64,000 bases of DNA from a virus. The stretch lies in IMG/VR virus record IMGVR_UViG_3300047311_000725. One strand, 5' to 3'. Position 1 is the first letter of the stretch; each line of letters opens with the position of its first letter. Made by a program: the position numbers and the translations under genes. Shown in pieces: positions 641-15,896 of this stretch. The notes under the pieces were generated by a model. That model was not told the origin of the DNA, did not search any database, and worked only from the letters and a program-made list of their open reading frames with translations.

Positions 641-1060
641 TTACCCGTCCAGCTTACGGATTTTGATACCTGCTGTGGCAAGCAGTTCCAGACCGTCCGT
701 CAGCCGGTACGGCTTCTGGTAGACGACCTCGGAGATGTTCGCGTTGACGATGGCCACGGCGCACTGGTAGCAGGGCTGGGTGGTCACGTACATCTTCTTC
801 TTCGCGACGCTGGTGTAGTTGGCCTTGATGAGGGCGTTCACCTCGGCGTGGAGATGGCCACAGAGGCCGGGTTCCAGGCTGAGGCAGTCGTTGGAGATCC
901 CCTTGGGACCTCCGTTGTAGCCGACCCCGAGGACCTGCTGGTTGTCCTCGGTGACGATCACGCAGCCGACCTGAAGCCGGGAGCAGGTGGACCGCTGGGA
1001 CAGCGTGAGAGCCAGCCCCATCCAGACGTCGTCCCAGGTGGGCCGATCAGTTGGACTCAT
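641..1060 (-). CDS. dCMP deaminase (cytidine/deoxycytidylate deaminase family)
   Basis: CGHLHAEVNA zinc-binding motif and PCYQC motif typical of dCMP/cytidine deaminases; 139 aa. Confidence 0.8.
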   Translation of the reverse strand: MSPTDRPTWDDVWMGLALTLSQRSTCSRLQVGCVIVTEDNQQVLGVGYNGGPKGISNDCLSLEPGLCGHLHAEVNALIKANYTSVAKKKMYVTTQPCYQCAVAIVNANISEVVYQKPYRLTDGLELLATAGIKIRKLDG

Positions 1061-1582: not shown

Positions 1583-2794
1583 TCAGGCTCCTTCTTTCTC
1601 GATAAGTAGGTCTTCACCCATGTCCACCACATCATTGGCCACGTCCTCGATTCTGTCGACGAAGTACCGGGCGTCCATGTGCTCGATCTGTTCGACGTTC
1701 TCTCTGCGGATGCGGTCCCGCTCCTTGAGGGGAAGTCCGGTCAGGGTCTTCACCACCTCGATCATGTCCCACCCGTCGCCGGCGATGAGGCCCGGCTGGA
1801 CGTAGGAAGAGATGCCGAGGTGAGAGCCGAGCCCCACCGGGATCGTACCGAACATGAGCGCCTCCCACGGACGCGGGGTGATGAACCCTGTCTCGAGGTA
1901 GCTCTGCTTCGCCAGGATCGGACAGGCCACCGCCGACCCGTAGACCCGGCGGAAGTCCGCCATGGTGATCCGGTCGTTGTAGCTCACGTTCGGCCAGAGC
2001 TTCTTGCACTCTTCGACCGTCCGCATCCAGTTGCCCCAGAACTCCACCTGCCCCGGGAAAGAGTCCGAGACGGGCTTCAGCCACTTGGTGATGACGTCGT
2101 CCCGCTCGTACCGGCTGCCGATGTAGACCAGCTTCCGGTTCTCGTCCGCCTCGAGGGTCGGGTGCTGCATGAGGTCCGCCACGATGGTGGGGAACTCCAC
2201 GCTGGTCCGCCTGGTGACCAGGTGCAGCGGCTTCTTCGAAGTCTCGAAGACCGCGTCTGGAGACCAGGTGATCTCGTCGTGGCCCAGGAGCTTGTGGTCC
2301 AGGTCCCAGAAGATGAGCTTGGTGCCCCGCTCCTTATAGTACCGCAGGATCTCGTACTGCCTGAAGAGGTCGGGCTGGAGCTCGATCTTCTTGTCGGCGT
2401 ACCCCGAGGCCATCATGGGCTGGCCGCTCTTCGCGTCGCTGGGGAAGCAGGGCGCGCCCTCCCACGAGCAGCAGTTCCGTCCGAAGATCGGGAACCTCCA
2501 CTCGACCAGCAGGACGTCCAGCTCGGGGAGGTCCACCCCGTTGGTCCGCTCGATGCCGAGGTAGGCCTCGGTCCGCTTCTCCTCACTGAACGAGGCGAAG
2601 AGGTCCCGGCCATACTTCATCCAGCCCTCGCGGTCGCGATCCTTCTGCATCGTGTAGACCGTGTAGTCCCGTTGCAGAAGCTCCCAGATGATGCTCCAGG
2701 AGTATGCGGCGTTCCCGTCCGGTGTGGAGACGGCCTCACCGCCCTCGCGTTTGTGATCTCCGAGGAAGCCCCAGTAGGAATATCCGATTCGCAT
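1583..2794 (-). CDS. T4 beta-glucosyltransferase (BGT, GT63)-like DNA hydroxymethyl-pyrimidine glucosyltransferase
   Basis: Collinear similarity to T4 BGT as remembered: MRIGYSYWGFLGD vs MKIAIINMGNNV; KLVYIGSRYERDDV vs LDVIYGGSFRSGQRE; FITPRPWEALMFGTIPV vs FITLRVWETMASDAVML. Confidence 0.75.
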   Translation of the reverse strand: MRIGYSYWGFLGDHKREGGEAVSTPDGNAAYSWSIIWELLQRDYTVYTMQKDRDREGWMKYGRDLFASFSEEKRTEAYLGIERTNGVDLPELDVLLVEWRFPIFGRNCCSWEGAPCFPSDAKSGQPMMASGYADKKIELQPDLFRQYEILRYYKERGTKLIFWDLDHKLLGHDEITWSPDAVFETSKKPLHLVTRRTSVEFPTIVADLMQHPTLEADENRKLVYIGSRYERDDVITKWLKPVSDSFPGQVEFWGNWMRTVEECKKLWPNVSYNDRITMADFRRVYGSAVACPILAKQSYLETGFITPRPWEALMFGTIPVGLGSHLGISSYVQPGLIAGDGWDMIEVVKTLTGLPLKERDRIRRENVEQIEHMDARYFVDRIEDVANDVVDMGEDLLIEKEGA

Positions 2795-2800
2795 AGACCT

Positions 2801-2811
2801 ATTATACCACA
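2801..2811 (-). promoter_or_regulatory. extended -10 promoter element TGTGGTATAAT, 6 nt upstream of ATG of BGT-like gene (leaderless transcript likely)
   Basis: Plus-strand attataccaca; same element recurs at 16877, 47474 and variants at 11391, 7238, 36712, 63913. Confidence 0.5.
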
Positions 2812-2812
2812 G

Positions 2813-3025
2813 TTAGCAGCGCATGAGAAGGTCTTTGCCAGGACCGTGGTGCGCCTGGTTGAGCTTGTCCTGCTCCTTCTTGCCGCCCATGGACGGGTCG
2901 ATCTCGTGGATGAACACGAGAGAGAGATGCTTCTTCACGGCCTCGAGCTGCTTCTCGTCCAGGGTCTTGGGATCCTGGATCTCGAAGAACCCCTGCAGCC
3001 AGAAACAGAAATCCCTAGAAGTCAT
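2813..3025 (-). CDS. hypothetical protein (~70 aa, MTSRDFCFWLQGFFEIQDPK..)
   Basis: ATG at 3023-3025; earlier part of the listed ORF overlaps upstream gene and is Ser/Arg-rich. Confidence 0.45.
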   Translation of the reverse strand: MTSRDFCFWLQGFFEIQDPKTLDEKQLEAVKKHLSLVFIHEIDPSMGGKKEQDKLNQAHHGPGKDLLMRC

Positions 3026-3494
3026 TTTGCCACTCCTCTTCTGCTTTGCGTCGTTCAAGAGCGTACGCAAGCGCTGCCTCACCGATGAGCCGCTTGAGTT
3101 CTTCCTCATTTTCCTCCGACCTTTCCGTGCGGAAGTCCGCGAGAGAGCGAACCTCGATGGGCCGCCCGTCGACGACGGCGTTCTTGATCCCGAGCTTCAT
3201 GCCTGACGAGATGCCCTTGTCGACGAAGAAGATCGAAGCCGAGGCCTGGGTGTTCCAGGCGAACCCTGCCTCGATGCCGAGGGTCCGCTCCGCGGGGACC
3301 TGGTCGTCGAGGACGCCGGGCTGGGTGTAGAGGGCGTGGCTGGCGTACGGCGCTTCTCCCTTGATCAGGCAGTCGTGCATGGCAGCCCGCAGGTAGCGGA
3401 GGTTCTCCTCCACCCCCTCGGGATCCCAGCTGCCGTCCGGCTTGCGGGCCGCGAACGGTGACTCGACGATGACCAGTCTTAGACGCTTCATCAT
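3015..3494 (-). CDS. hypothetical protein, possibly nucleoside 2-deoxyribosyltransferase-like fold (DUF1937-like)
   Basis: 160 aa from MMKRLRLVIVESPFAA..; N-terminal VIVESPF..H motif reminiscent of deoxyribosyltransferase-like phage proteins; uncertain. Confidence 0.4.
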   Translation of the reverse strand: MMKRLRLVIVESPFAARKPDGSWDPEGVEENLRYLRAAMHDCLIKGEAPYASHALYTQPGVLDDQVPAERTLGIEAGFAWNTQASASIFFVDKGISSGMKLGIKNAVVDGRPIEVRSLADFRTERSEENEEELKRLIGEAALAYALERRKAEEEWQNDF

Positions 3495-3499
3495 GTCTC

Positions 3500-4018
3500 C
3501 TATCTCATGAGGAGCGGGATGATGTAGTCCAGCTCCGACTTGGTGTCGTTCTTGTAGTAGTCCACGTTCACTGGAACGACGTCGCAGTTCGTCCACTCCA
3601 TGAAGTCGAAGTAGGCGTCGTGGATCTCTTTGAGCTTGTTCTTCGGGACCAGCTCGTCCTCCCGGTTCTTCGTGTAGTCTTCACGCCACGGGATGATGAT
3701 GCGGGCGCCGAGCTCACTCCACTCCCGGTCCAGCTGAGAGAGGACCGAGAAGTTCGTCTCCCTCTTGAAGACCATGGAGTATACCCACTCGCTCGGCCAG
3801 GCGCGGTCGATGATGACCGAGCACCCGGTCTGCTTGAGGAATTGGGTGAGGTACGTCTGGTCGAACTCCAGCGCCTCCTTGAACTTCCCCTTGCGCCAGT
3901 TGTCGTGCTCCGAGTTCATCTTGAAGTACGGGACGCCGATCTCTTTGGAGAGAGCCTTGGCGATGGTGGTCTTCCCCACGCCGTCCGGTCCTTCGAAGAG
4001 GATGATGTCTTGCTTCAT
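3500..4018 (-). CDS. deoxynucleoside monophosphate kinase / thymidylate-kinase-like P-loop kinase
   Basis: Walker A GPDGVGKTT near N-terminus, ~172 aa, start ATG verified at 4016-4018. Confidence 0.65.
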   Translation of the reverse strand: MKQDIILFEGPDGVGKTTIAKALSKEIGVPYFKMNSEHDNWRKGKFKEALEFDQTYLTQFLKQTGCSVIIDRAWPSEWVYSMVFKRETNFSVLSQLDREWSELGARIIIPWREDYTKNREDELVPKNKLKEIHDAYFDFMEWTNCDVVPVNVDYYKNDTKSELDYIIPLLMR

Positions 4019-4019
4019 G

Positions 4020-5153
4020 TCAGACTCCCGAAGTTCCGCCGCCGTGGCGCCGGAAGAGCTTGGACCAGATGACCATCGCTTCCCCCAGCCGCCTGAAGTA
4101 CTGGGCGTGTTCTGGGTACTCCGAATAGGCTCCGATGTGTTGCCCCATCTCGCCATAGCAGCCATCCAGGTCGAGCCCCGGAGAGATCTGAGCCTTGTCG
4201 ACGTGCTCCCAGAACTTCTCGTTGACCTCGATGCCGTTCGCTTCCTTCTTCAGGTTGGCGAACGGGTTGCTGGCCCGTTCGTGCCGGATGTAGGGCATGC
4301 CTGTCGAGACCTGAAGACGCTTCACGTCCGCGATCTTCTTCATCAGGATGCCGCACCAGATGTCGCCGAACCTGTCGAAGGCCAACTTCTCCAGCGCCAG
4401 GCCCGGAGAGTCCGGGACCGTGAGGAGAGTCCCCAGGGGCGGGGTGTAGATCTTGCTGTTCTCTCTGGAGTGGAGGACCTGGCCCATGAGCAGGTGGTAC
4501 ATGAGGACCGTCGCGTCCCGGCGCCACATGACGTTCATGCCGCACATCGGGAAGTACGAGCCGTTGGGCACGATCCGGTTGTCGAAGCTGAACTCCTCGG
4601 GGATCGGGTTGGCCAGCTGGAACGGGGCGTCGTAGTCCAGCACGTTGGTCCAGAGCCCGTGATTGACGATCACCTTGTCGTTGCGACCGAGGTTGTAGAA
4701 CGGGATGCCACGTGGCTTCACCTTGTTCAGGGTGTTGAACCACCGGGTCCGCTTCTCCAGGTACTGGAGGTGGGAGGCGACGAACGACTCCCCGTCCTCG
4801 TACTGAAGTCCATCCACATCCCTCGACGGCGGGTAGCAGTCGTCGTCGAGGGTGAGGATGAAATCGTAACCCATCTTCCAGGCGTAGTAGTACGCGTAGC
4901 TCCTGACCGTGTCCGAACGCCGGGGGATGATCCAGCTGTCTTTCCCGAGGTCAGCCTCGATGTCTTCCCAGCAGAGGTGGACCGCTCCCCACCGCTTGTC
5001 GACGCTGGAAACGTCGAAGGTCTTCTTCGGGTTGTCCTCCATCACGATCAGGTCGACTGCCTGATAGAGACCGAGGGCTTCCCACCGGGAGATGAAGTCC
5101 TTGAAGGAGTTCTCCCGGATGGTCGGAATGACGAGAGCGACGCGCATGGACAT
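4020..5153 (-). CDS. GT75-family protein, homolog of plant reversibly glycosylated polypeptide / UDP-arabinopyranose mutase
   Basis: Strong collinear matches to Arabidopsis RGP1 as remembered: LVIPTIREN, FILTLDDDCY (DxD), HGLWTNVLDYDAPFQL, FPMCGMN, MPYIRHERASNPFANLKKE. Confidence 0.85.
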   Translation of the reverse strand: MSMRVALVIPTIRENSFKDFISRWEALGLYQAVDLIVMEDNPKKTFDVSSVDKRWGAVHLCWEDIEADLGKDSWIIPRRSDTVRSYAYYYAWKMGYDFILTLDDDCYPPSRDVDGLQYEDGESFVASHLQYLEKRTRWFNTLNKVKPRGIPFYNLGRNDKVIVNHGLWTNVLDYDAPFQLANPIPEEFSFDNRIVPNGSYFPMCGMNVMWRRDATVLMYHLLMGQVLHSRENSKIYTPPLGTLLTVPDSPGLALEKLAFDRFGDIWCGILMKKIADVKRLQVSTGMPYIRHERASNPFANLKKEANGIEVNEKFWEHVDKAQISPGLDLDGCYGEMGQHIGAYSEYPEHAQYFRRLGEAMVIWSKLFRRHGGGTSGV

Positions 5154-5389: not shown

Positions 5390-7219
5390 TTAGTGGGACT
5401 CGGGAGTGCCGCCGCCGTTGCTGCCGTTCTTCGAGAGGCCGTCCTTGATGAGGCCGGCCAGGAGGACGTTCACCAGGCCGCCCTGGTTGTTGCCGTCGAG
5501 ACCGCCACCGGCCATGATCTCCGGGACCAGGGCGTGACCGGACGAGGAGAGGGCGCGTGCCACCTCGATGAGGGCGTAGTTGGCCTTGCCGTTCGCGTCG
5601 GTCTTCTTCTGGATGACCTCGGCCTCGGCCGTGCCGACCGCCGTGATCTTCTTGCCCTCGGCGTCACCGATGGCCACGAGCACCTCGGCATCCGCCTTGG
5701 CGTTGATGGTCTTGGACTGGGCGTCGCCTTCCGCCTTCTTGACCGCCGACTGGGCGTCGAACTCGGCGATCTGGACCTTCCGCTGGGACTCGACGACGTT
5801 GGCCTGGGTGGCCGCCATCGCCTTGGCCTGCTCGAACTCCTTGCGGGTCTCCTCGGCCATGCGCTGGGTGTCGAACGTGATCTTCTCCTGCTCGGCGATC
5901 TTCCGCTTCGTCAGGGTCTCCATGAGGGCGTCCGGCGGGGTGATGTCACCGATGAGGGTGTCCACCGCTCCGACGTTGTACTCCTTCAGGGCGTTGTTGA
6001 TGGAAGCCCGGGCGTCCTGCTGGCGCTTCTCGCGCTCCTTGAGGAAGGCGATGGCGTCCGAGCCCTGGGCCGCGTTCCTGAAGTAGTTGCCGATGGTCGG
6101 CTCCAGGACCTGGGTGACCAGGTTGGCCACGCTGCCAAAGCGGGCGATGACCTTGGGGGCGTCGGTCCGGGGGATGTGGATGATCTGGCTCACGTCCAGA
6201 TTGAACTTGAAGCCGTCGGAGCTACGCACCGTGATGGTGGACAGGTTGGCGTCCAGCTTGTGCGCCTCGGTCTTGCCGGTCGCCCAGTTGAGGACGACGT
6301 TGGCCGTCGGCACGACCTCGACCTTGTGGGTGTACGGGTTGATCGGGTACTTGCCCGGGTCCAGCGGCTCGACCCACACACCCTTCTGCCCACGGACCAC
6401 GAGGTTGCCGTGCTTGAAGGACTCACCCGTGACGTCCACACCGACCCCACCGACGTAGGCGATGACCACGCCAGCATTGGCGATGGGCACCTCGGTCATC
6501 GGCTTCACTTCCACGGTGGCGAAGAGCGGGTTGATGTAGTACAGGCCGGCCAGGATGACCTGCTCCTGCAGGCCCTTGTAGCCACCGGCGGTGATGAAGG
6601 CCTCGCCGTCCTGGTACATGTTGTGGCCGGGGAACTCTCCGCCGGCGATGTCACCGGTCGAGAGGGGCTTGCCGTCCTTGGTGGTGACCACGCCGACCAT
6701 GTTGTCGGGGATCTCGAGAGCCTCCACGATCCTCAGGGAGAAGAGGACCGTGTTGATGCGGTAGGTGCCGGGGGTGATGATGGCGATCTGGGGACCACGT
6801 TCTCCGCCTGCCTCGAGGAAGGCGCGGGCGTTCTGGAACGAGTCACACTCGACCTTTCGCGCGAGGACTCGACCGTTCACCGGAACCTGGCCACCTCGCG
6901 ACTCGATGAGCCCGACGTGGTTCTCCGGGATGTTCACGAACTTCTGGAGGGTGACCGCGTACTGCCACGGCCAGAGGCCGAAGTGGACGCCAGGGGCCAG
7001 CGTGTCCGCCTGGAAGCCGGCCTCACCCTTCAGGGCGATGACGGCACCGTCGGGCAGGGTCTTCGCGCCGAAGAGGGCGAACTTCTTGTCGACGATGCCG
7101 ACCTCGTCCTTCGAGACGGAGACCATCCCGAAGCAGAGCCGGAGCACGAACTTGTAGAGCACGAGGGTCAGGACGATGGGTACGACCCACCAGAACGCGA
7201 GCACGGTTGCGATGGTCAT
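5390..7219 (-). CDS. flotillin / SPFH (band-7) domain membrane protein
   Basis: N-terminal TM helix, SPFH-like core, long Ala/Lys/Glu/Gln coiled-coil (KAEGDAQSKTINAKADAEV..), Gly-rich C-terminus; 609 aa. Confidence 0.75.
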   Translation of the reverse strand: MTIATVLAFWWVVPIVLTLVLYKFVLRLCFGMVSVSKDEVGIVDKKFALFGAKTLPDGAVIALKGEAGFQADTLAPGVHFGLWPWQYAVTLQKFVNIPENHVGLIESRGGQVPVNGRVLARKVECDSFQNARAFLEAGGERGPQIAIITPGTYRINTVLFSLRIVEALEIPDNMVGVVTTKDGKPLSTGDIAGGEFPGHNMYQDGEAFITAGGYKGLQEQVILAGLYYINPLFATVEVKPMTEVPIANAGVVIAYVGGVGVDVTGESFKHGNLVVRGQKGVWVEPLDPGKYPINPYTHKVEVVPTANVVLNWATGKTEAHKLDANLSTITVRSSDGFKFNLDVSQIIHIPRTDAPKVIARFGSVANLVTQVLEPTIGNYFRNAAQGSDAIAFLKEREKRQQDARASINNALKEYNVGAVDTLIGDITPPDALMETLTKRKIAEQEKITFDTQRMAEETRKEFEQAKAMAATQANVVESQRKVQIAEFDAQSAVKKAEGDAQSKTINAKADAEVLVAIGDAEGKKITAVGTAEAEVIQKKTDANGKANYALIEVARALSSSGHALVPEIMAGGGLDGNNQGGLVNVLLAGLIKDGLSKNGSNGGGTPESH

Positions 7220-7547: not shown

Positions 7548-7844
7548 CTACTTCCTCGACCAGGTCATGATGAAACAGTGAGGCGCGGAGGCGTACTCCC
7601 GAGGGTCGCAGATGTCCACCTGAAGGCGGGTGTGCGGGTCCATGTCCAGCTCGGGGGCATCGACGTCGGCACCACAGCTGAAGGTGAGAGTGACCTTGGC
7701 CGGGACGCGGTTCTCGATCACGAACTGGGAGCAGGAGGCGACCTGCTTCTCCGAGATGATCGTCGGCTCTTCCTTCGGCTTGAGCTTGAGGGTGACGCCG
7801 CTCACGGCGAGGATCGAGGCGAGGAGTGCGATGAAGATCTTCAT
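7548..7844 (-). CDS. secreted small protein with N-terminal signal peptide and 4+ Cys
   Basis: MKIFIALLASILAVSGVT signal-like N-terminus; 98 aa. Confidence 0.5.
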   Translation of the reverse strand: MKIFIALLASILAVSGVTLKLKPKEEPTIISEKQVASCSQFVIENRVPAKVTLTFSCGADVDAPELDMDPHTRLQVDICDPREYASAPHCFIMTWSRK

Positions 7845-7856
7845 GGTGTTTTCTCC

Positions 7857-10800
7857 CTAGAGACTTATGTCGTCCACATTGATGAAGGCCTGCATCGTCG
7901 AATGCTGGCTCTGCGCCCACCCCGGCCGGCCGAGCTTCAGGCGCTCGGGGTCATCGTCGATGTCTCTGTTGAAGGTGGCGATGTAGACCGAGCCTTTGCG
8001 GATGACGGGTGAGATCCACTTCCACATGTTCGCGAAGGCCGGGACGTCGAACGTCTCCCCGTCTTCCGTGGCGAACTTGATGAAGGCGAACATCTGCCCG
8101 TTGCGCTGGGGCTTCTCCTTCCACTCCTTCACCACGACCGGGAGCATCGTCATCTCTTCCTCGCCGCCGAGGAACTCCTCCATCGTGGAGACCACCCCAT
8201 CGAACATGGCGGTGATCTTCTTCTTCCGGTCGAGGATCTCGAAGGGAGTACCCGCGAGGCTGAACTCCATGAGCTCGTTCTCGAGGAAGACCTTCTCGTG
8301 GAGCTTGAAGTCTTCGATCTTCTCATCCGTCATGATCCGGGAGTAGAGCTCGTCCCAGCGTGGACGGCCCTTGACCGACTGGACTCGGGCCAGCTTCGGA
8401 CCGCCTGACACCTTCTCGTCGACGATCTTCAGCTCCCCGTCGAGGGTGACGAGGACGTTGTCGGTCCACTTCCGGTATGCCTCCCAGAGCCGCTTGATGT
8501 TGCCGCAGCCGGGGAGAGACCCGAAGGCTCCCACCTGGATGAGCGCCTCGACCGCCGTCTTGTTGGCCTTGGACCTGTCGAGGAAGTCCTGGAACGAGGT
8601 GTATGGTTGGTTGGCCACGATCTTTTCGATCACGGACGGACCCACGCCGAGGACACGTCCGAGGGCCAGCCGGATGCACAGGCCCTCGATGATGTTGGCC
8701 GCCCGGCTCTTGTTGATGTCCACCGGGAGGATCTTGATCCCCGTCTTCTGGATGTCTGCCACCAGAGTCTGGATCGCGTTGGCCTGCGCCTTCGTCAGGG
8801 CCGCCGTGTAGAACTCCAGCGGGTAGTAGGTCGCCAGGTGCGCCGTCTGCATCGTGGTGAGGGAGTAGGCATCCGAGTGGCTCTTGTTGAAGGCGTAGCC
8901 GCCGAAGGCCTTGATGTCTTCCCAGAGCTTCAGGGTCTTGTCTTCGGGGAAGCCGTGCTCCATGCAGCCCTTGTGGAAGCTGGCGTAGAGGACGTCGTTC
9001 TCCTGCTTCAAGAACTCTTCCGTCTTGCTCTTGTCCTTCTTCAGCAGGACCTTGCGGACGCGGTTGACTTCCTTGCCCGTCATCTTGCCGAAGACGGAGC
9101 AGACCTTCATGAGCTGCTCCTGGAAGACGAGGCAGCCCTTGGTCGAACCGAGGATCTCGTCCAGCACCGGGTGACCGAGGGAGGCGATCTCCCCGTGCTT
9201 CGCCGTGACGTAGACCTTGTCATACCCACCCTTGAGCGGGCCGGGGCGGTAGAGAGAGCAGATGGCCGAGACGTCGACGAAGCTGTCCGGCTTGACCCGC
9301 TTGGCCAGCGCCCGGATGCCCGGGTTCGAGAACTGGAAGATGGCTCCGAAGTTCCCGTCCCAGAAGATGTTCTTCATGACCTTGATGTCATCGAGGTCCA
9401 TGTTGTGCGAACGCAGTCCCTCGTAGAGTTCGTCGAAGCTCTTGCCGGTCCGTGAGCTGATGTGTTCCAGGGCGCACCGGATGACGCGCAGGTTGGCCAG
9501 CCCGAGGATGTCCATCTTGACGAAGCCCATGGCCGAGAGGTTCTTGTTGACGATGCCCTCGGTGAACGAGCACTGGACGACCATCTCGCCTTCTTCGGCC
9601 AGTGTGTCGTCCTCCCCGTCTTCGTTGTCCTTGGTCTTCTTGCCCTTGGCCTTGGCGACGAAGCAGCTGGTCTCCGCCGGCAGGTTGTCGCCGATGATGA
9701 CACCAGCCGCGTGCCGGGTGACGTGCCTGATCCGGCCGTAGAGAGTCTTGATCTTGCTGCCCAGGTCGGGGTTCTCTTCCACGAAGGTGTTGAACGACGG
9801 GCTGACCCGGATGATGTCGTCCAGCTTGACCACGAGGGTGCTCTTGTCCTGGTCCACGTAGAGGACCTTGAGCTCCTTGTCGATCTGCCGGTTGAGCTTG
9901 TTGATGAGGTTGTGGTCGACGCCGTACACACGCCCCAGGTCCTTCAGCAGTCCCTTGATCTGGAACGTGCCGTACGAGCTGAGGGAGGCGACGTTGTCGT
10001 CCCCGAACATCTTCTGAAGCATCCGCTTGGCGGCCTTGGGATCCTCGAAGTCCGTGTCGATGTCGGGGAGCTCGGCGCGGTCGATGTCGAGGAAGCGTTC
10101 GAAGAGCAGGTCTCTCTTGATCGGGTCGAGGTCCGTGATGCCCAGGCACCAGCACACGAGGGAGCCGGCGGCTGAGCCGCGGCCTGGACCGACAAGCATG
10201 TACTTCTTGGCTTCCTCGATGATCTGCTGGCAGACGAGGAAGTAGTTCGAGATCCCCTTCTGCTTGATGACCCCGAGCTCGAAGAGGAGGCGGTCCTTGT
10301 AGATCTCGTTCTCCGCCAGTCCCAGCTTCTTCAGGCCGGCGATGGCCCGCATGCCCATCTCCTTGTAGGGATTGGCGAAGGGGAGGGTGGGCAGGCGCTG
10401 GTGAGTGTCGGGCTCGAAGTCCTCGATGAGGCTGTCGATGAGGAGCGTCCCCTGGAACGCCTCCATCGCGGTCTTCGGATCGATGCAGTGACCGGCCAGC
10501 TTCTCGTAGGTGAGCCACATCTCCTCGGGAGACTTCACAAAGAGCTGCTTGACCTGTGAGTCGAGCTTCTGTTCCGGCAGGTCGGCGACCGTCTTCTTGC
10601 TCCAGCCCATGAGGTGGAGAAGCTCTCGTGGCTCCCACTCCGCCTGGGTGGCGTAGTGTGAGTCCGTGGTCACCGTCAGCGGGACGCCCGTCTCCTTGTG
10701 GAGCTGGACGAGGGAGGTGTTGATGTAGTTCTGCTCCTTGTCCATCTCGTTGAACTGGAGCTCGAGGTAGAACCGGCCACGGCCGAAGATCCGGTCGTAG

Positions 10801-11384
10801 TCGAGGACCTCGTTCTTGACGTCCTCCCAGGTGCAGGACCCTTCCTTCAGGTCCCACAGCCGCTTGGAGATGACGCCGCCCATGCAGGCCGAGGTCGCGA
10901 TCAGGCCCTTGGCGTGCTCCTGGAGCATCACCTTATCCATGCGTGGCTTCTGGTAGAAGCCAAACTTGTGGGCCTTGAACGTGAGCTGGTAGAGGTTGCT
11001 GAGACCCTCCCGGTTGCTGGCGAGGATGACGAGGTGGCCCTTGCGTCGAAGGGCCTTGGGATCGACGACGTCACCGTCGGCGGTGTACTCGTTGTCTTCC
11101 TTCTTGGCGCCCTTCCGCTTCTGGGAGTCGATCTCCCCCTTCAGCGCCTTCCACTCCTTGAGGTCGTGGATGACGTAGGCTTCCACGCCGAAGACGGTCT
11201 TCACGCCCATCTTCTTCCCCATCAGGTACCAGTCGGCGTGACCGTGTGTCACACCGTGATCGGTGAGGGCGATGGACTTGAGACCCTTCTCCTTCGCGGC
11301 CTTCAGCAGCTCTTCCGGGAGGGAGAGGCCGTCGAAGACCGAGAAGTGAGAATGGTTGTGAAAGGAGGCGAACTCCTTGAGCAT
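7857..11384 (-). CDS. dnaE: DNA polymerase III alpha subunit (DnaE-type, PHP domain)
   Basis: N-terminal PHP motif FHNHSHFSVFDG..LTDHG, 1175 aa C-family polymerase architecture. Confidence 0.9.
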   Translation of the reverse strand: MLKEFASFHNHSHFSVFDGLSLPEELLKAAKEKGLKSIALTDHGVTHGHADWYLMGKKMGVKTVFGVEAYVIHDLKEWKALKGEIDSQKRKGAKKEDNEYTADGDVVDPKALRRKGHLVILASNREGLSNLYQLTFKAHKFGFYQKPRMDKVMLQEHAKGLIATSACMGGVISKRLWDLKEGSCTWEDVKNEVLDYDRIFGRGRFYLELQFNEMDKEQNYINTSLVQLHKETGVPLTVTTDSHYATQAEWEPRELLHLMGWSKKTVADLPEQKLDSQVKQLFVKSPEEMWLTYEKLAGHCIDPKTAMEAFQGTLLIDSLIEDFEPDTHQRLPTLPFANPYKEMGMRAIAGLKKLGLAENEIYKDRLLFELGVIKQKGISNYFLVCQQIIEEAKKYMLVGPGRGSAAGSLVCWCLGITDLDPIKRDLLFERFLDIDRAELPDIDTDFEDPKAAKRMLQKMFGDDNVASLSSYGTFQIKGLLKDLGRVYGVDHNLINKLNRQIDKELKVLYVDQDKSTLVVKLDDIIRVSPSFNTFVEENPDLGSKIKTLYGRIRHVTRHAAGVIIGDNLPAETSCFVAKAKGKKTKDNEDGEDDTLAEEGEMVVQCSFTEGIVNKNLSAMGFVKMDILGLANLRVIRCALEHISSRTGKSFDELYEGLRSHNMDLDDIKVMKNIFWDGNFGAIFQFSNPGIRALAKRVKPDSFVDVSAICSLYRPGPLKGGYDKVYVTAKHGEIASLGHPVLDEILGSTKGCLVFQEQLMKVCSVFGKMTGKEVNRVRKVLLKKDKSKTEEFLKQENDVLYASFHKGCMEHGFPEDKTLKLWEDIKAFGGYAFNKSHSDAYSLTTMQTAHLATYYPLEFYTAALTKAQANAIQTLVADIQKTGIKILPVDINKSRAANIIEGLCIRLALGRVLGVGPSVIEKIVANQPYTSFQDFLDRSKANKTAVEALIQVGAFGSLPGCGNIKRLWEAYRKWTDNVLVTLDGELKIVDEKVSGGPKLARVQSVKGRPRWDELYSRIMTDEKIEDFKLHEKVFLENELMEFSLAGTPFEILDRKKKITAMFDGVVSTMEEFLGGEEEMTMLPVVVKEWKEKPQRNGQMFAFIKFATEDGETFDVPAFANMWKWISPVIRKGSVYIATFNRDIDDDPERLKLGRPGWAQSQHSTMQAFINVDDISL

Positions 11385-11390
11385 AGGAGT

Positions 11391-11401
11391 ATTATATCAC
11401 A
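11391..11401 (-). promoter_or_regulatory. extended -10 promoter CTGTGATATAAT 6 nt upstream of dnaE ATG
   Basis: Plus-strand attatatcaca; no SD between element and ATG (leaderless configuration). Confidence 0.45.
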
Positions 11402-11405
11402 GCTG

Positions 11406-11606
11406 CTACTTCGCGTCCAGGTTTCTGTCGATCATCTCCTTGACGTCGTCGACCGCCTTGTCCGGTCTCGTGTTGAACGCCGTGCCTACCCGGCTGCTCG
11501 CCTTGTAGACCACCTTGCCATTCCCGTCGACGGTGTAGCCTTCTTCCTTGAAGCGGGGAGCCTCGTCGACCGAGATGTCTTCCCCGCGGTGCTTGAAGGC
11601 GCTCAC
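11406..11606 (-). CDS. hypothetical protein (66 aa)
   Basis: Small ORF overlapping GroES gene stop by 4 nt. Confidence 0.45.
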   Translation of the reverse strand: MSAFKHRGEDISVDEAPRFKEEGYTVDGNGKVVYKASSRVGTAFNTRPDKAVDDVKEMIDRNLDAK

Positions 11607-11908
11607 GCTTCCTCCGGCAGGTAGCGGCCGAGGATGTCCTCGTTCCGCACGACGAGGTACTCACGACGGTTGATGGTCGCCTTCATGCCGCCGAGGGCGT
11701 CGATGAGGACCGCGTCTCCGGGCTTGAACTTGCTGGTCACCGTCGCCCCGTTCACGAGGTAGGTCTCGCTGACCGCGACCACCTTGCCCTTCTTCGGGCC
11801 CTCCTGAGAGACGGTCTGCGGGACGTAGAGGCCGCTCTCCGTCTGGTCACCCACCTCGTCGAGGTCGATGGCGACGCGGTTGCCGTTCAGTTCGAGATTG
11901 AATCCCAT
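11603..11908 (-). CDS. groES: co-chaperonin GroES (Hsp10)
   Basis: GLYVP, GKVVAVSE, PGDAVLI motifs characteristic of GroES; 101 aa. Confidence 0.8.
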   Translation of the reverse strand: MGFNLELNGNRVAIDLDEVGDQTESGLYVPQTVSQEGPKKGKVVAVSETYLVNGATVTSKFKPGDAVLIDALGGMKATINRREYLVVRNEDILGRYLPEEA

Positions 11909-11921
11909 GTGCTGCTCCTTT

Positions 11922-12986
11922 TTAGAAAATCCACCAGAGGTTCTTACGGCTTTCCCGTCCGCTCGGCATCCCGAGGAACGTGCGCCAGATCCGAGTCGAA
12001 GACTCCACGAAGTCGTTCAGGGCTTCCTGCTGCACCTTGACCGTCTTGTGGCTGCTCTCCAGTGCGCGGATGGCCTCGGTTGCCGCCTCCGAGGTGTCGT
12101 CGATGTTGGACTGGTACCTTTCCGGCACCCAGCTGACGGCCTCTCCGACGATCACTGGCACCCCGCTGGACACGGCGTCCGCGGCCACCAGGCAGAAGGT
12201 CTCGGTGGCGGACAGCTGGAAGACCAGGTCCATCTCAGCGATGGTCTCCCGGAAGGTGGCCGCGTCCTGCCAGCTCACCTCGATCAGCTTCGCCCAGGGG
12301 AGACCAGCGAAGAGGTTCCGCATCGTGTTCCGGACGCTGTGACCTCCCGGGGTATTGTCGGTATTGACGTAGAACTCCAGCTGCCGGTCGAGGCGGACGG
12401 CGACCTGAAGGGCCGCCAGTGCCGCGGAAGAGTGGAGCTTCAGGAGCCGGGTGGCACCGAAAGAAGCCAGCCTGAGGATGCGATCGTGGCTGTGCTTCTT
12501 CGGGGGAGACCCGTCCCAGTCGAAGAGGTTCGGCAGGTAGAGCACGTCGCCGTAGACTTCCCCGAGAGAGTTGCAGAACTCCTGGTTGTTGCTGGAGAAA
12601 GAGATGTTCGGGTACTCTTCCCCGAGGTCGATGAGGGCCCGGATGACCGGGATGGCCTCGGGCTCGACCTGGAGGAACCCGATCTTGGAGTGCGCCCGCA
12701 CCACGATCTTGAGGTGGGGGTGGGCGTGGGACAGGAGGACGACCTCGGACGCCTTGACCCAGACCGCCTCGATGACGGCGTGGGTGATGTCCGGGTTGGC
12801 CCGAAGGTAGGCCGCCAGCTCGTCGAAGCTGGACACGGCGACGAGGTCTACGTCTACACCCTCCCGACGGAGGACGCCGACGGTGTGCAGCGCGTTCGCC
12901 GCCAGTCCGCCCGTGTGGTAGGGATTGTGACCCTGTCCTGAGGACTTGGACTTGTAGAAGATCCTGAGCTTTGTCGTGCGCTTCAT
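11922..12986 (-). CDS. GT-B fold glycosyltransferase, GT4-like
   Basis: C-terminal ETFCLVAADAVSSGVPVI matches GT4 E-x7-E donor-binding motif; 354 aa. Confidence 0.7.
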   Translation of the reverse strand: MKRTTKLRIFYKSKSSGQGHNPYHTGGLAANALHTVGVLRREGVDVDLVAVSSFDELAAYLRANPDITHAVIEAVWVKASEVVLLSHAHPHLKIVVRAHSKIGFLQVEPEAIPVIRALIDLGEEYPNISFSSNNQEFCNSLGEVYGDVLYLPNLFDWDGSPPKKHSHDRILRLASFGATRLLKLHSSAALAALQVAVRLDRQLEFYVNTDNTPGGHSVRNTMRNLFAGLPWAKLIEVSWQDAATFRETIAEMDLVFQLSATETFCLVAADAVSSGVPVIVGEAVSWVPERYQSNIDDTSEAATEAIRALESSHKTVKVQQEALNDFVESSTRIWRTFLGMPSGRESRKNLWWIF

Positions 12987-13002: not shown

Positions 13003-13557
13003 CTAAGCCTTGGGGTTGTTTACCTTCAGAGTGGTAAGTAGCTCGTCTAGATCTTCTCTTTGCGTCCCGCATCGGACAAGCGGGATCCGCAGGTCGGACA
13101 GCATCCCATAGACGCCGTTGTCGATCTGCTTGGCCTGCTCCTCGTTCTGGAACCGACCCTCCTGCTTGTACGGCTTGGTGCGCTCCAGGAAGACGTGGTG
13201 GTGCTGGTGGCCGTCCTCGGCCGCCTGCCGGTAGTAGGCGAGGGTCATGGCCCGGACTCCCTCACTGACCGAGAGGGGAGAGAACTTGCTGGCGTAGTAG
13301 ATGCCCAGCATGATCGGGGCGTCGGTGACGATCATGTCCACCTTCCCGTAGAGGAAGCTCTCCCGACGGACCTGCTTGCCGAGCAGGTAGATCTGGTCGT
13401 AGGTGGAGATCGTGCGACCCTCCCACGCCCAGTCCTTGACGTACTCCCGCACGAGCTCGGCGTTCTTCCCCTGCGACTTCAGCAGGTAGAAGAGGTAGGC
13501 CGCCGAGGTGGACTTGCCGGTGCCCGGTCCACCGTAGAGATTGATGACTACGCTCAT
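13003..13557 (-). CDS. P-loop NTPase/kinase (AAA_33 / polynucleotide-kinase-like)
   Basis: Walker A GGPGTGKST at N-terminus (MSVVINLYGGPGTGKST), ~184 aa. Confidence 0.6.
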   Translation of the reverse strand: MSVVINLYGGPGTGKSTSAAYLFYLLKSQGKNAELVREYVKDWAWEGRTISTYDQIYLLGKQVRRESFLYGKVDMIVTDAPIMLGIYYASKFSPLSVSEGVRAMTLAYYRQAAEDGHQHHHVFLERTKPYKQEGRFQNEEQAKQIDNGVYGMLSDLRIPLVRCGTQREDLDELLTTLKVNNPKA

Positions 13558-13823
13558 TAGTACCTCTGGTCGTAGATGATGTGTTCGATCTTCGCCCTGA
13601 CCAGGGGGAGACCGTTGCGATTGGCCAGTCTGATGGCGCCGCGCATCTCGTCTTCGATCACTCCCTGCGACCCGTGCCACGCCGTCCAGTAGCAGTAGAG
13701 TCGTTGGCCGAGGACGGGATCGCCCTCGATCCGGCTGAACTTCCAGCCGTAGGGACACGACGCCTCGGCGAGCTTCGCCTGTTCAGCGTCGAACGTCAGG
13801 TGGCACTCGTACCCTCTATCCAT
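13557..13823 (-). CDS. hypothetical protein (88 aa)
   Basis: ORF with protein-like composition, ATGA overlap with downstream P-loop gene. Confidence 0.5.
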   Translation of the reverse strand: MDRGYECHLTFDAEQAKLAEASCPYGWKFSRIEGDPVLGQRLYCYWTAWHGSQGVIEDEMRGAIRLANRNGLPLVRAKIEHIIYDQRY

Positions 13824-14034
13824 CCACCACCTTCTTCAGCTCTTCCAGTTCCCGCTCCATCTCCGGGATCGCCGCCGCCCGTTCCTTGGCGTGCTGGATC
13901 TGGCAGGTCAGGACGCAGACCTTGCAGTACATCTGGTACGCGCCGTGGATGTAGGCCATCGTACCCTCCGTCCAGATCTCCGTCCCCTGACGGGTCAGGC
14001 ACCTGGCGCAGATGTCTCCCGGCAACCGGCCCAT
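13816..14034 (-). CDS. small zinc-ribbon-like protein (72 aa, CARC...CKVC)
   Basis: Start ATG 14032-14034 overlaps MazG stop (TGATG); two CxxC pairs. Confidence 0.35.
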   Translation of the reverse strand: MGRLPGDICARCLTRQGTEIWTEGTMAYIHGAYQMYCKVCVLTCQIQHAKERAAAIPEMERELEELKKVVDG

Positions 14035-14411
14035 CAGTAGCCCTTGGCCAGTCTTTCCTTGACGGTCTTGTTCTTGCGGCAGTACTCCTCGTAGAGGTCG
14101 TCCGCCCCGATCCCGCTGAGGAGACAGATCTCGAGGAAGAACGCGAAGGCGTCCCCGAGCTCTTCCTTGTAGTGACCGAAGTCGAGGGTGCGATCGTCGG
14201 TCAGCCGGTGCATCTTGTTCTTGAGGGTGGCCATCGCCTCGTGGAGTTCGTCGGAGAGGTTGAAGGCCGTCTCCTTGATGAGGCGTTGGCCGGGCTTGGT
14301 GGTGAGGTCCACCGGCCACTCGGGAAGCTTGTCGTTCACGCGCAGGAGTTCCATGAACTCCTCTTGACGCTTGAAGACGTCGTACAACATGTCGGGGGGA
14401 AGTGCGCTCAT
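14034..14411 (-). CDS. MazG-like NTP pyrophosphohydrolase (paralog 2; candidate dCTPase/dUTPase as in T4 gp56)
   Basis: KEELGDAFAFFLEI and upstream ELHEAMATL acidic helices typical of MazG/dimeric dUTPase fold; 125 aa. Confidence 0.7.
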   Translation of the reverse strand: MSALPPDMLYDVFKRQEEFMELLRVNDKLPEWPVDLTTKPGQRLIKETAFNLSDELHEAMATLKNKMHRLTDDRTLDFGHYKEELGDAFAFFLEICLLSGIGADDLYEEYCRKNKTVKERLAKGY

Positions 14412-14460: not shown

Positions 14461-14940
14461 TCAATCCTGGTAGGACGGATTGCCCTTGGCGTCGGTCATG
14501 ACGAGCGGACCGACGTTGGACTTGCAGTTCCACGACTGGGCCGTCGGGTAGTTCTTCTCGACGATCTCGTGGAACCCGGCGCGCAGCCCCTCGTCTTCCG
14601 AGAAGAAGCACACCAGTCCGTTGGCCGCGGTGAGCTGCACCGCCGCCGTGACCAACCGCTCGTCCAGGACGTTCTCCCGGGCGATGAAGATGCGGTCGAA
14701 GACCCGCTCCGCCGACAGGAGCTTCTCGAGCTCCCGCTTGTTCTTGACGGTCGTGATGGTGCGAACGTTGCGCTTCACCGAGGGGAAGTACGCGTTCGAC
14801 CCGATGTAGAGCAGATCCTGACCGCGTCGCAGGTCGGTGACCCGGGTGAAGTCGTCGAACCTCGAGTACTCCTTGGGCGGGTAGCTCGGGGCGACCTCGA
14901 TCTCGAGGTCCTTGATCTGATCGCGGATGTTCTGTCCCAT
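14461..14940 (-). CDS. hypothetical protein (159 aa, starts MGQNIRDQIKD)
   Basis: Upstream 120 codons of listed ORF are Arg/Pro/Gly-rich read-through into the TS-like gene; ATG verified at 14938-14940. Confidence 0.55.
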   Translation of the reverse strand: MGQNIRDQIKDLEIEVAPSYPPKEYSRFDDFTRVTDLRRGQDLLYIGSNAYFPSVKRNVRTITTVKNKRELEKLLSAERVFDRIFIARENVLDERLVTAAVQLTAANGLVCFFSEDEGLRAGFHEIVEKNYPTAQSWNCKSNVGPLVMTDAKGNPSYQD

Positions 14941-14942
14941 GT

Positions 14943-15896
14943 TCAGCCTGCTTTCTTGTCTCCCTTGAGGGACTCTTCGGCGTCCCTCTTTTGCCGGTGT
15001 ACATTCAACTCGTCGGCCAGCCACAGCTCCCCGCCCTCGTACTTGGAGAGCTGGATCTGGTCGATGTAACGCTTGCGAAGCTCTTCCTCGTCGTAGCCCA
15101 GCTTGTCCAGAGACTCGAGGCTGGTGAGGGCCGGCATGGCGTCGTAGCACCTGAAGCCCTCGTCGTAGAGCTTGATGACCTCTTCGGCCATCTCGAAGTG
15201 GCGCTCGTACAGGTGGAGCGAGCCGGCCGTGTGGTAGTACTGGCCGAGGCGCAGGTCCGCGAACTTCGGGTTCTGCCGCTTCAGGTCCAGGAACATGCAC
15301 TCCTGGAAGAGCGTGAAGCTGAAGAGGTCATTCGTCAGGCCCCAGATGGCGTCGTTGGACCGCATGTGGACGTGCAGGTGGAGCGCGCCGTCACGGATGA
15401 AGAACTGGAGCGAGAGGGTGCAGGGCACGTCCTTCGATCCCTGGTGCACCGCCACGTCCGCGTCGATCGGGGCGAAGATGGTCATGACCGCCCGTCGACT
15501 GTCCGAGTCCCCCGACAGGGTGGCGATGCAGTTGTTCCACTGGCTGTCCATGTCCAGCAGGTCGGACCCCGCCCGGAGCCGGTAGCCGTACGCCGAGTTC
15601 AGCGTGTGGCCGTCGTCCGAGAAGTCCTTCATCCGCCGGTTGTAGTAGAGCATCATCTCCAGATCCCGGCGACCCTGCCAGTACCAGAGGAACTCCCCGG
15701 CCGCGAACCCGTAGTTCGACTTCCGGGCCGGGTTGTGGATGAAGCGGGACCGCGGGTCCGTCAGGACGAGCGTGAGGGCCAGGTCTTCCTTGATCTTCTG
15801 TCCACGCGGGGCGCAGACGAAGTCGGGGTTCCGGCTCAGCTTCCGAAGGAGCTTGACGAAGATGTCGTCGAACGAGACTCCGAGGATATCAGCCAT
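14943..15896 (-). CDS. thymidylate synthase-family dNMP hydroxymethylase (candidate dCMP hydroxymethylase; canonical ThyA not excluded)
   Basis: DVPCTLSLQFF (catalytic Cys, PC motif) and HMRSNDAIWGLTNDLFSF aligning to E. coli ThyA QRSCDVFLGLPFNIASY; Asp aligns at the Asn177 specificity position. Confidence 0.7.
   Translation of the reverse strand: MADILGVSFDDIFVKLLRKLSRNPDFVCAPRGQKIKEDLALTLVLTDPRSRFIHNPARKSNYGFAAGEFLWYWQGRRDLEMMLYYNRRMKDFSDDGHTLNSAYGYRLRAGSDLLDMDSQWNNCIATLSGDSDSRRAVMTIFAPIDADVAVHQGSKDVPCTLSLQFFIRDGALHLHVHMRSNDAIWGLTNDLFSFTLFQECMFLDLKRQNPKFADLRLGQYYHTAGSLHLYERHFEMAEEVIKLYDEGFRCYDAMPALTSLESLDKLGYDEEELRKRYIDQIQLSKYEGGELWLADELNVHRQKRDAEESLKGDKKAG

Follow-up and report, generated by a model that had tools for sequence, protein, structure and literature searches.

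What would a sugar mutase of a family known from plant cell walls and antibiotic pathways do in a phage? The question is raised by a stretch of 64,000 nucleotides of viral DNA (IMG/VR record IMGVR_UViG_3300047311_000725), referred to below as the window. It encodes a protein of the GT75/RGP family, whose members interconvert pyranose and furanose forms of nucleoside-diphosphate (NDP) sugars, together with a nucleotide kinase and a 403-residue protein distantly related to T4 beta-glucosyltransferase (BGT). An earlier reading, made from the letters and their translations without database searches (the sequence-only reading), took this cluster as a sign of hydroxymethyl-pyrimidine DNA carrying a sugar other than glucose or in addition to it. 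In outline the proposal stands, upheld by the gp42-type signature of a thymidylate synthase (TS) homologue, an intact GT75 enzyme, conserved gene order and the replacement of GT75 by an unrelated mutase, Glf, in related loci; the sugar itself is not pinned to arabinose. Overall, the GT75 enzyme rather probably feeds DNA glycosylation through the 403-residue protein.

The assignment of the mutase is based on family, structural and residue-level comparisons. The protein encoded at 4020-5153 matches Pfam family PF03214 (RGP) over its full length (E = 2.5e-35; 122.7 bits, cutoff 23.8), and it matches solved GT75 structures, namely the UDP-arabinopyranose mutase 8cid (1.3e-14) and MtdL (7yua/7xpr; 5e-11). 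A profile of 44 family sequences raises these matches to 1.2e-24 and 7.4e-21, respectively. The motif strings quoted in the sequence-only reading (DDDC, HGLWTNVLDYDAP, FPMCGMN and ASNPFANLKKE) are all found in the translation. FPMCGMN and ASNPFxNLKKE are presumably identical in plant class-1 RGPs, judging from the Pfam match and the motif description in a review. Across 44 phage homologues (56-83% identity), D103-D104-D105, R148, D173-Y174-D175, C204-G-M-N207, R261, D264, H291 and R293 are invariant; the MtdL counterparts are D109-D111, R159, D195, R257, D260, H287 and R289. The defining residues were listed from the MtdL structure paper (PMC9937993) and a review of plant UDP-arabinopyranose mutases (UAMs; PMC6861824), and all of them are kept in the phage family; the DDD, R148, DYD, R261/D264 and H291/R293 positions map onto residues that are essential by mutagenesis in MtdL and OsUAM1 (PMC9937993, PMC6861824). 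R148 lies within KPRGIPF, which aligns to PRGFPF of MtdL, and corresponds to the catalytic, autoglycosylated arginine (R158 in OsUAM1, R159 in MtdL). The central motif binds Mn2+ and reads DDD in active class 1 and DDN in inactive class 2 enzymes (PMC6861824); the phage protein has the class-1 form. The third motif reads DYD in every plant sequence, DLD in bacteria and DVD in archaea (PMC6861824).

A degenerate, non-catalytic relic, or a protein that merely glycosylates itself, would have a precedent in the plant class-2 RGPs, which are inactive as mutases. The inactive AtRGP5 lacks the equivalents of MtdL R257 and H287, which, like D260, are phosphate- and metal-binding residues (PMC9937993, PMC6861824). 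The phage enzyme has both, together with the class-1 DDD, and all are invariant across the phage family, which makes a relic very improbable. Loss of the DxD motif and the arginine, which the sequence-only reading had named as the mark of such a relic, is not seen in the 44 homologues. Judged by these residues, the GT75 protein is very likely to be an active mutase.

Its substrate is less clearly written in the sequence. The S80-D81 pair is like S86-D87 of MtdL, where active plant enzymes have D-S, and the first DxD motif is EDN, not DGD. The position of the sugar-binding pair S228-Q229 of MtdL is occupied by G-M, which resembles G-I of the plant class-2 structure 8cid and is presumably identical in class-1 plant RGPs. 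The enzyme thus appears closest to the plant class-1 type with a sugar pocket that is not identical, and so UDP-L-arabinose should not be assumed to be the substrate. Where MtdL has T13, which contacts guanine (PMC9937993), the phage enzyme has a proline (Pro10), so that a UDP-sugar is favoured; UDP is probably the nucleotide as judged from Pro10 only, since the HMMER alignments start at about residue 74 and the base-contacting D40/N42 of MtdL are not aligned.

The base that would receive the sugar is predicted from the TS homologue, which matches the CMP hydroxymethylase MilA (1.1e-41) and T4 gp42 (6.8e-15) in the PDB. Family searches bear out the sequence-only reading of this gene as a hydroxymethylase, and of the nearby MazG-like gene as dCTPase-like. 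The protein was aligned with E. coli ThyA, T4 gp42 and RB69 gp48 and numbered after ThyA, a numbering that is self-consistent in the alignment. C146 and D169 are kept, and N177D and L143D are present; the protein agrees with T4 gp42 at 143, 147, 165, 168, 169, 173 and 177, all seven tabulated active-site positions at which gp42 differs from ThyA. Phages RB69, DLP3 and RL38J1 make glycosylated 5-hydroxycytosine, and their TS homologues all carry D169N (Lee et al. 2026, PMC13326640). In the same alignment, position 169 is N in RB69 gp48 and D in the window protein. Cys146, the cytosine-specific Asp177 and the retained Asp169 together predict 5-hydroxymethyl-dCMP, not 5-hydroxy-dCMP, as the product. 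A further candidate, 5-hydroxymethyl-dUMP, was considered, as the SPO1 and SP10 enzymes are among the tblastn matches, and was rejected because position 177 is Asp, not Asn. A ThyA-like enzyme is not needed for dTMP, as in T4, since ThyX is encoded just beyond the window and a dCMP deaminase at 641-1060. In GenBank, the TS homologue is closest to gp319 of Bacillus phage G (36% identity). Annotated in the same region (L002:193-5326) are a thymidylate kinase, a HAD hydrolase, an alpha-glucosyltransferase and a glucose-1-phosphate thymidylyltransferase, a hint that phage G might modify its DNA by way of a dTDP-sugar.

The 403-residue protein had been called collinear with T4 BGT. No sequence-family match accompanies this description: there is no Pfam family at E <=0.01, no PHROG match, and no match by tblastn against GenBank phages or by phmmer against PDB sequences. 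Structure prediction was therefore used. The model has a GT-B fold, with T4 BGT in the top five structural neighbours and T4 alpha-glucosyltransferase at rank 8. A profile alignment to BGT (hhalign; probability 77.5%, E = 1.9e-5) covers the nucleotide-binding half with motif-level matches and an ambiguous register at the phosphate loop; the N-terminal domain gives no sequence alignment to BGT. Foldseek comparison with viral predicted structures gives moderate matches (template modelling score about 0.55-0.6). Among 329 metagenomic homologues, one has any Pfam domain.

The kinase encoded between these two genes shares 30% identity (E = 8e-8) with gp45, the kinase encoded in the modification cluster of RB69, and is predicted to phosphorylate modified dCMP. 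It is a P-loop deoxynucleotide kinase as first proposed, of the thymidylate-kinase-like and not the T4 gp1 type.

These genes are kept together well beyond the window. The order GT75, kinase, BGT-like transferase is found in all 13 close-clade loci examined (among them L003, L005 and L009-L017/L020), in which GT75 is 48-100% identical and G+C content ranges from 0.34 to 0.66; as a rule, the genes for the TS homologue, MazG and DnaE are located a short way upstream. The kinase directly follows GT75 in six of ten IMG/VR relatives, as well as in L003/L005/L006, and is separated from it by 0.4-1.0 kb in the other four. At least 33 contigs are common to the top-120 homologue lists of GT75 and the transferase. 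Five of them are shorter than 6 kb, so that both genes must lie within a few kilobases there. A 53-kb, low-GC phage with an unrelated backbone (L028) has the order dCMP deaminase, TS, MazG-like, kinase, GT75, uracil-DNA glycosylase (UDG)-like, BGT-like transferase, PolA. Its whole cassette is compact (L028:7749-14738), with the UDG-superfamily gene (10947-11699) between GT75 and transferase; L151 has a weak UDG-like match at the equivalent position. L151 also encodes two tandem TS homologues (7679-9287), both with D177 and D169, one gp42-like and the other more divergent (N143).

A search of IMG/VR with the transferase family gave 16 loci. A TS homologue lies within 10 kb in 13 of them, and the TS homologues beside the family all carry D169 and N177D. 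GT75 is upstream of the transferase in ten loci. In three of the six loci without GT75 (L149, L150 and L152, all low-GC IMG/VR phages), the transferase is accompanied instead by Glf, the flavin-dependent UDP-galactopyranose mutase. Taking both mutases together, 13 of the 16 loci have one of them no more than about 2 kb from the BGT-like gene (directly adjacent only in L152), and none of the 16 has both. In L149 (8488-11113), Glf, kinase and transferase fill the very slot held by GT75 in the window; L150 (9989-15636) and L152 (9500-14312) have transferase, Glf, then kinase or dCMP deaminase and the TS homologue. The L152 Glf is part of a 685-residue fusion protein, whose C-terminal half has no identified family. 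Since two mechanistically unrelated mutases interchange beside the same transferase in a hydroxymethylcytosine cassette, the mutase should supply the donor of that transferase, and the transferase should act on DNA. For both points, this interchange is the strongest evidence at hand.

A pathway can be proposed on this basis. Going by family signatures, the MazG-like pyrophosphatase would remove dCTP, the gp42-like enzyme would turn dCMP into 5-hydroxymethyl-dCMP, the thymidylate-kinase-like kinase would phosphorylate the latter, and the phage DnaE replicase would incorporate the modified nucleotide. Synteny and the displacement of one mutase by an analogous one suggest the remaining steps: GT75, as an Mn2+-dependent, cofactor-free mutase, would convert a host NDP-pyranose to the NDP-furanose, and the BGT-like transferase encoded downstream would put the furanose on 5-hydroxymethylcytosine (5hmC) of replicated DNA. 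In this phage and the minority of relatives with a GT4 transferase, that enzyme may attach another sugar.

The sugar is probably galactofuranose or L-arabinofuranose; any single choice is at best tentative, and arabinofuranose is no more likely than galactofuranose. The plant-like motifs of GT75 suggest arabinofuranose, the candidate of the sequence-only reading, which remains one of the candidates. UDP-arabinose precursor genes were not found in the window or in the 10 kb beyond its start, and the substitution of Glf for GT75 suggests galactofuranose at least as strongly. Galactofuranose is also suggested by the lack of sugar-nucleotide precursor genes (epimerase, dehydrogenase, decarboxylase or nucleotidyltransferase) at 1-25 kb of the window or in the 10 kb beyond its start, and by the wider occurrence in bacteria of UDP-galactose than of NDP-arabinose. 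NDP-arabinose is not known in Enterobacteriaceae (PMC13326640). Weak cross-activities, of OsUAM1 on UDP-galactose and of Glf on UDP-arabinose (PMC6861824), point to galactofuranose as well. A 6-deoxyhexofuranose is possible, because MtdL and Hyg20 use GDP-L-fucose and many distant viral GT75 genes adjoin a 4,6-dehydratase-like enzyme.

Several observations weigh against a role in DNA modification. The GT75 family had been called essentially unknown in phages. This is true of the literature, in which a search found no publication linking GT75/RGP enzymes to phages, and of GenBank phages, with one match in a 595-kb uncultured genome (LR756511); it does not apply to metagenomes, which hold 70 IMG/VR loci and 1167 database homologues. 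Most of these other genes lie in polysaccharide-type clusters. Homologues in cellular metagenome-assembled genomes (28-43% identical) adjoin GT2 and GT1 transferases and epimerases, and in the 60 such loci scanned, chosen for homologues with an FPMCGMN or SDTVRS motif, none has the transferase, kinase or TS nearby. Distant viral GT75 genes have as neighbours a 4,6-dehydratase-like short-chain dehydrogenase/reductase (SDR), methyltransferases and GT2 transferases. In LR756511 (L008:8450-13133), two sulfotransferases, a methyltransferase and a protein with an F5/8-type-C domain flank GT75, which suggests a sulfated or methylated glycan pathway in this huge phage. Because most homologues lie in glycan-type clusters, the GT75 family has no intrinsic tie to DNA. 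Apart from distribution, three of the 16 transferase-family loci have neither mutase within 10 kb, and the acceptor of the 403-residue enzyme follows solely from context and its distant resemblance to BGT. No precursor-sugar genes were found nearby, and the host, or else a part of the genome beyond that covered here, must therefore provide the substrate. Finally, even the nearest cultured capsids (Flavobacterium phage immuto, Microcystis phage Mel-JY01 and Rhodothermus phage RM378) are merely 35-37% identical to that of the window.

The distant viral loci have features of their own. In a subset of low-GC contigs (L042-L058 and L070; GT75 26-30% identical), an NDP-hexose 4,6-dehydratase-like SDR is encoded immediately upstream of GT75, and eight such open reading frames (ORFs) were confirmed against NCBIfam; these clusters are probably 6-deoxyhexofuranose pathways. 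Methyltransferases and GT2 transferases are frequent neighbours across 37 distant viral GT75 loci (26-41% identical).

It could follow from this distribution that the target of GT75 and the 403-residue transferase lies outside DNA, for example in virion proteins, a small molecule or a glycan of the host envelope, and that their place in a replication module is a coincidence. The glycan-type setting of cellular and most viral homologues would fit. In two unrelated backbones, however, the pair is embedded between DnaE, a nucleotide kinase, a dCMP deaminase and a TS homologue; hydroxymethylase-type TS homologues co-occur with the transferase family in 13 of 16 loci, and both T4 DNA glucosyltransferases are among the nearest solved neighbours of the transferase. 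A non-DNA target is accordingly unlikely. Another division of labour would make the BGT-like enzyme an ordinary UDP-glucose:5hmC glucosyltransferase and leave the furanose made by GT75 to another transferase (GT4 or one encoded elsewhere), as a second DNA sugar or otherwise. Such an arrangement is compatible with the GT4 gene of this phage and with the similarity that can be detected to T4 BGT in its UDP-binding half. The three BGT-like loci with no mutase nearby fit it as well; going by these, the family can presumably work with a common donor. Its improbability stems from the rarity of GT4, which has 50 homologues against 329 for the BGT-like gene, is seen in two of the 13 close loci and is missing from most GT75-bearing relatives; from the roughly 2-kb spacing of mutase and BGT-like gene described above; and from the L028 cassette, which has no other homologue of the window transferases (the remaining L028 ORFs were partly scanned).

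The same cluster logic of TS homologue, thymidylate-kinase-like kinase and GT-B transferases is found in the RB69/DLP3 type of system, which makes arabinosyl-5-hydroxycytosine. That the window encodes such a system is highly unlikely: the TS homologue keeps D169, where all tested 5-hydroxy-dCMP synthases are D169N, RB69 has no GT75, and tblastn with RB69 gp55, gp52:53 and gp51 against the window finds nothing below E = 0.07. The Pfam families of the isomerase, the kinase/uridylyltransferase (AfhE) and the phosphatase (AfhF) were likewise not found among the Pfam-submitted ORFs of 1-22.3 kb (all but six replication ORFs, including RNR, DnaB and DnaE), nor in precomputed assignments for 10 kb beyond the window start, which covers the seen portion of a roughly 205-kb genome only. 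With D169 present and the arabinose genes not found, the 5-hydroxycytosine pathway was rejected, and the supply of a furanose by GT75 to a transferase acting on 5hmC is preferred.

The genes discussed are set out in Table 1. All reported ORFs are borne out on the minus strand, with boundaries that are reproduced by an independent gene call on an identical contig, and the plausible genes at 1-25 kb all lie on that strand.

Table 1. Predicted genes of the modification cluster and its surroundings in the window.
Feature	Position	Strand	Length (aa)	Basis and remarks
dCMP deaminase	641..1060	-	139	Pfam PF00383, 1.8e-22; in relatives likewise located downstream of the cluster
GT-B glycosyltransferase distantly related to T4 beta-glucosyltransferase	1583..2794	-	403	Predicted DNA hydroxymethylcytosine furanosyltransferase
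DUF7768 / nucleoside 2-deoxyribosyltransferase-like protein	3015..3491	-	158	Pfam PF24963, 1.8e-23; PHROG 355
Thymidylate-kinase-like P-loop nucleotide kinase	3500..4018	-	172	PHROG 761 (thymidylate kinase), 3.9e-13
GT75/RGP-family metal-dependent NDP-sugar pyranose-furanose mutase (predicted)	4020..5153	-	377	Pfam PF03214
DnaE-type replicative polymerase	7857..11384	-		Translation; Pfam PHP/DNA_pol3_alpha on identical gene
GT4-type retaining GT-B glycosyltransferase	11922..12986	-	354	Accessory second transferase
Second P-loop kinase (AAA_28 / thymidylate-kinase-like)	13003..13560	-	185	Pfam AAA_28, 8.8e-10; PHROG 2107
MazG-like all-alpha NTP pyrophosphatase, predicted dCTPase/dUTPase	14034..14411	-	125	Pfam dUTPase_2, 1e-4; PHROG 12184 (nucleotide pyrophosphohydrolase), 4.9e-13
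Thymidylate-synthase homologue, predicted dCMP hydroxymethylase	14943..15896	-	317	

In the independent call, the cluster consists of GT75 (377 aa), the kinase (172 aa), the DUF7768 protein (158 aa), an ORF of 70 aa and the 403-aa protein. Consecutive genes lie 1-18 bp apart or have a few bases in common, and the cluster is therefore probably co-transcribed. It is placed inside the replication module. The window has a G+C content of 62%, and its remainder encodes DnaB, UvsX, class II ribonucleotide reductase, tail sheath, tape measure and a gp23-like capsid protein; rIIA/rIIB are present in relatives. The source is an uncultured, distant (far-T4-like) myovirus. Megablast of window positions 1-20 kb against GenBank phages gave no match, and the longest contig bearing the identical GT75 protein measures 204,762 bp.

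The dCMP deaminase is predicted to supply dUMP to the dTMP branch. The nucleotide-metabolism module extends beyond window position 1, where genes for ThyX, for an HD-domain protein and for an NT5C-type 5'-nucleotidase follow at a distance of 5-8.5 kb (L079:15417-19006). The MazG-like gene is kept adjoining the TS homologue in relatives. Between these two genes, the window has a 159-aa ORF without a family match (14461-14940, minus strand); the program's ORF list gives it only as 279 aa, lengthened upstream by a spurious stretch that overlaps the TS gene, and in relatives an unrelated-looking 134-aa ORF holds the same slot (L005:4434-4838). The DUF7768 protein is a lineage-specific insertion between kinase and transferase, present in this phage only and absent from relatives; by analogy with DNPH1-type N-hydrolases it could, speculatively, act on modified nucleotides. 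The GT4 gene, classed as GT4 in the sequence-only reading too, is an ordinary retaining GT4 and no fixed partner of the cluster; it is accessory, in a minority of the clade. The second kinase has no similarity to RB69 gp45. Two further ORFs on the minus strand are a 609-aa SPFH/Band-7 protein with a hydrophobic N-terminus, between DnaE and GT75 (5390-7219) and absent from the relatives examined, and a 2301-aa ORF in the structural region (25820-32725).

How sensitive phage DNA is to restriction enzymes, modification-dependent nucleases and CRISPR is determined by its hypermodifications, which have also been a source of tools for epigenetic sequencing. The broader picture, evenly balanced in our judgement, would be that a widespread far-T4-like clade (about 200 kb) and at least one unrelated small PolA phage replace cytosine by galactofuranosyl- or arabinofuranosyl-5hmC, using a GT75 recruited from glycan metabolism for the donor, a new BGT-related family of DNA furanosyltransferases, and GT75 and Glf as interchangeable donor modules. 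To our knowledge, neither furanosyl-5hmC has so far been observed in DNA. If the picture is true, a furanose on 5hmC joins the known repertoire of sugar chemistry, and GT75 gains, for the first time, a role beyond plant cell walls and antibiotic pathways. It would also define a new DNA glycosyltransferase family among proteins without current annotation (329 homologues, one with a Pfam domain). The GT75/Glf swap would then provide a simple genomic rule for spotting furanose-modified phage genomes in metagenomes, and a small four-gene cassette would be open to direct heterologous expression.

Among known systems, the plant class-1 UAM/RGP enzymes (OsUAM1, AtRGP1-3) share with the phage GT75 the Pfam family, the DDD motif, DYD as third motif and the conserved arginine. 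The phage enzyme differs in being viral, with about 36-43% identity to homologues in metagenome-assembled genomes, in having S80-D81 in place of D-S and EDN in place of DGD, and in a context of nucleotide metabolism instead of cell-wall synthesis. UDP-L-arabinose is not a common bacterial metabolite. The bacterial GT75 enzymes MtdL and Hyg20 are GDP-L-galactose/GDP-L-fucose pyranose-furanose mutases; they have the same fold family and essential residues (D87, DDD, R159, D195, R257, D260 and H287), whereas the phage GT75 is less similar to MtdL than to 8cid, has G-M for S228-Q229 and Pro for T13, and lies outside any antibiotic pathway. T4 BGT (GT63) is a distant relative of the 403-residue protein, sharing the GT-B fold without a sequence-family match.

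RB69 makes D-arabinosyl-5-hydroxycytosine by way of a D169N TS homologue, an arabinose-5-phosphate isomerase, a kinase/uridylyltransferase and a phosphatase, and the UDP-D-arabinofuranose of RB69/DLP3 is built from ribulose-5-phosphate (PMC13326640). The kinases are homologous, a MazG-like dCTPase is common to both systems, and the RB69/DLP3 GT-B transferases are structural neighbours of BshA and sucrose-phosphate synthase, like the GT4 of the window. RB69 lacks GT75, and no homologues of the RB69 arabinose pathway were found in the window. The parallel with arabinosyl-hydroxymethylcytosine in RB69, drawn in the sequence-only reading, is therefore outdated: the RB69 base is 5-hydroxycytosine, its arabinose genes have no homologues in the window, and the TS homologue keeps D169.

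A further parallel is offered by Rhizobium phage RL38J1, in which Glf is proposed to supply UDP-galactofuranose for DNA glycosylation, on 5-hydroxycytosine (PMC13326640). No other earlier proposal of a phage's own nucleotide-sugar mutase serving DNA glycosylation is known to us. The RL38J1/Pootjesviridae cluster contains a TS homologue, a kinase, glycosyltransferases and the Glf UDP-galactopyranose mutase, and it has in common with the window both the kinase-transferase-TS logic and a phage-encoded pyranose-furanose mutase proposed for cytosine glycosylation. The first RL38J1 transferase has no sequence similarity to the 403-residue protein. A flavin-dependent Glf and 5-hydroxycytosine (D169N TS) there contrast with a metal-dependent GT75 and predicted 5hmC here. 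What is new with respect to RL38J1 is thus another mutase family, another predicted base and a transferase family that lacks annotation and is a distant relation of T4 BGT.

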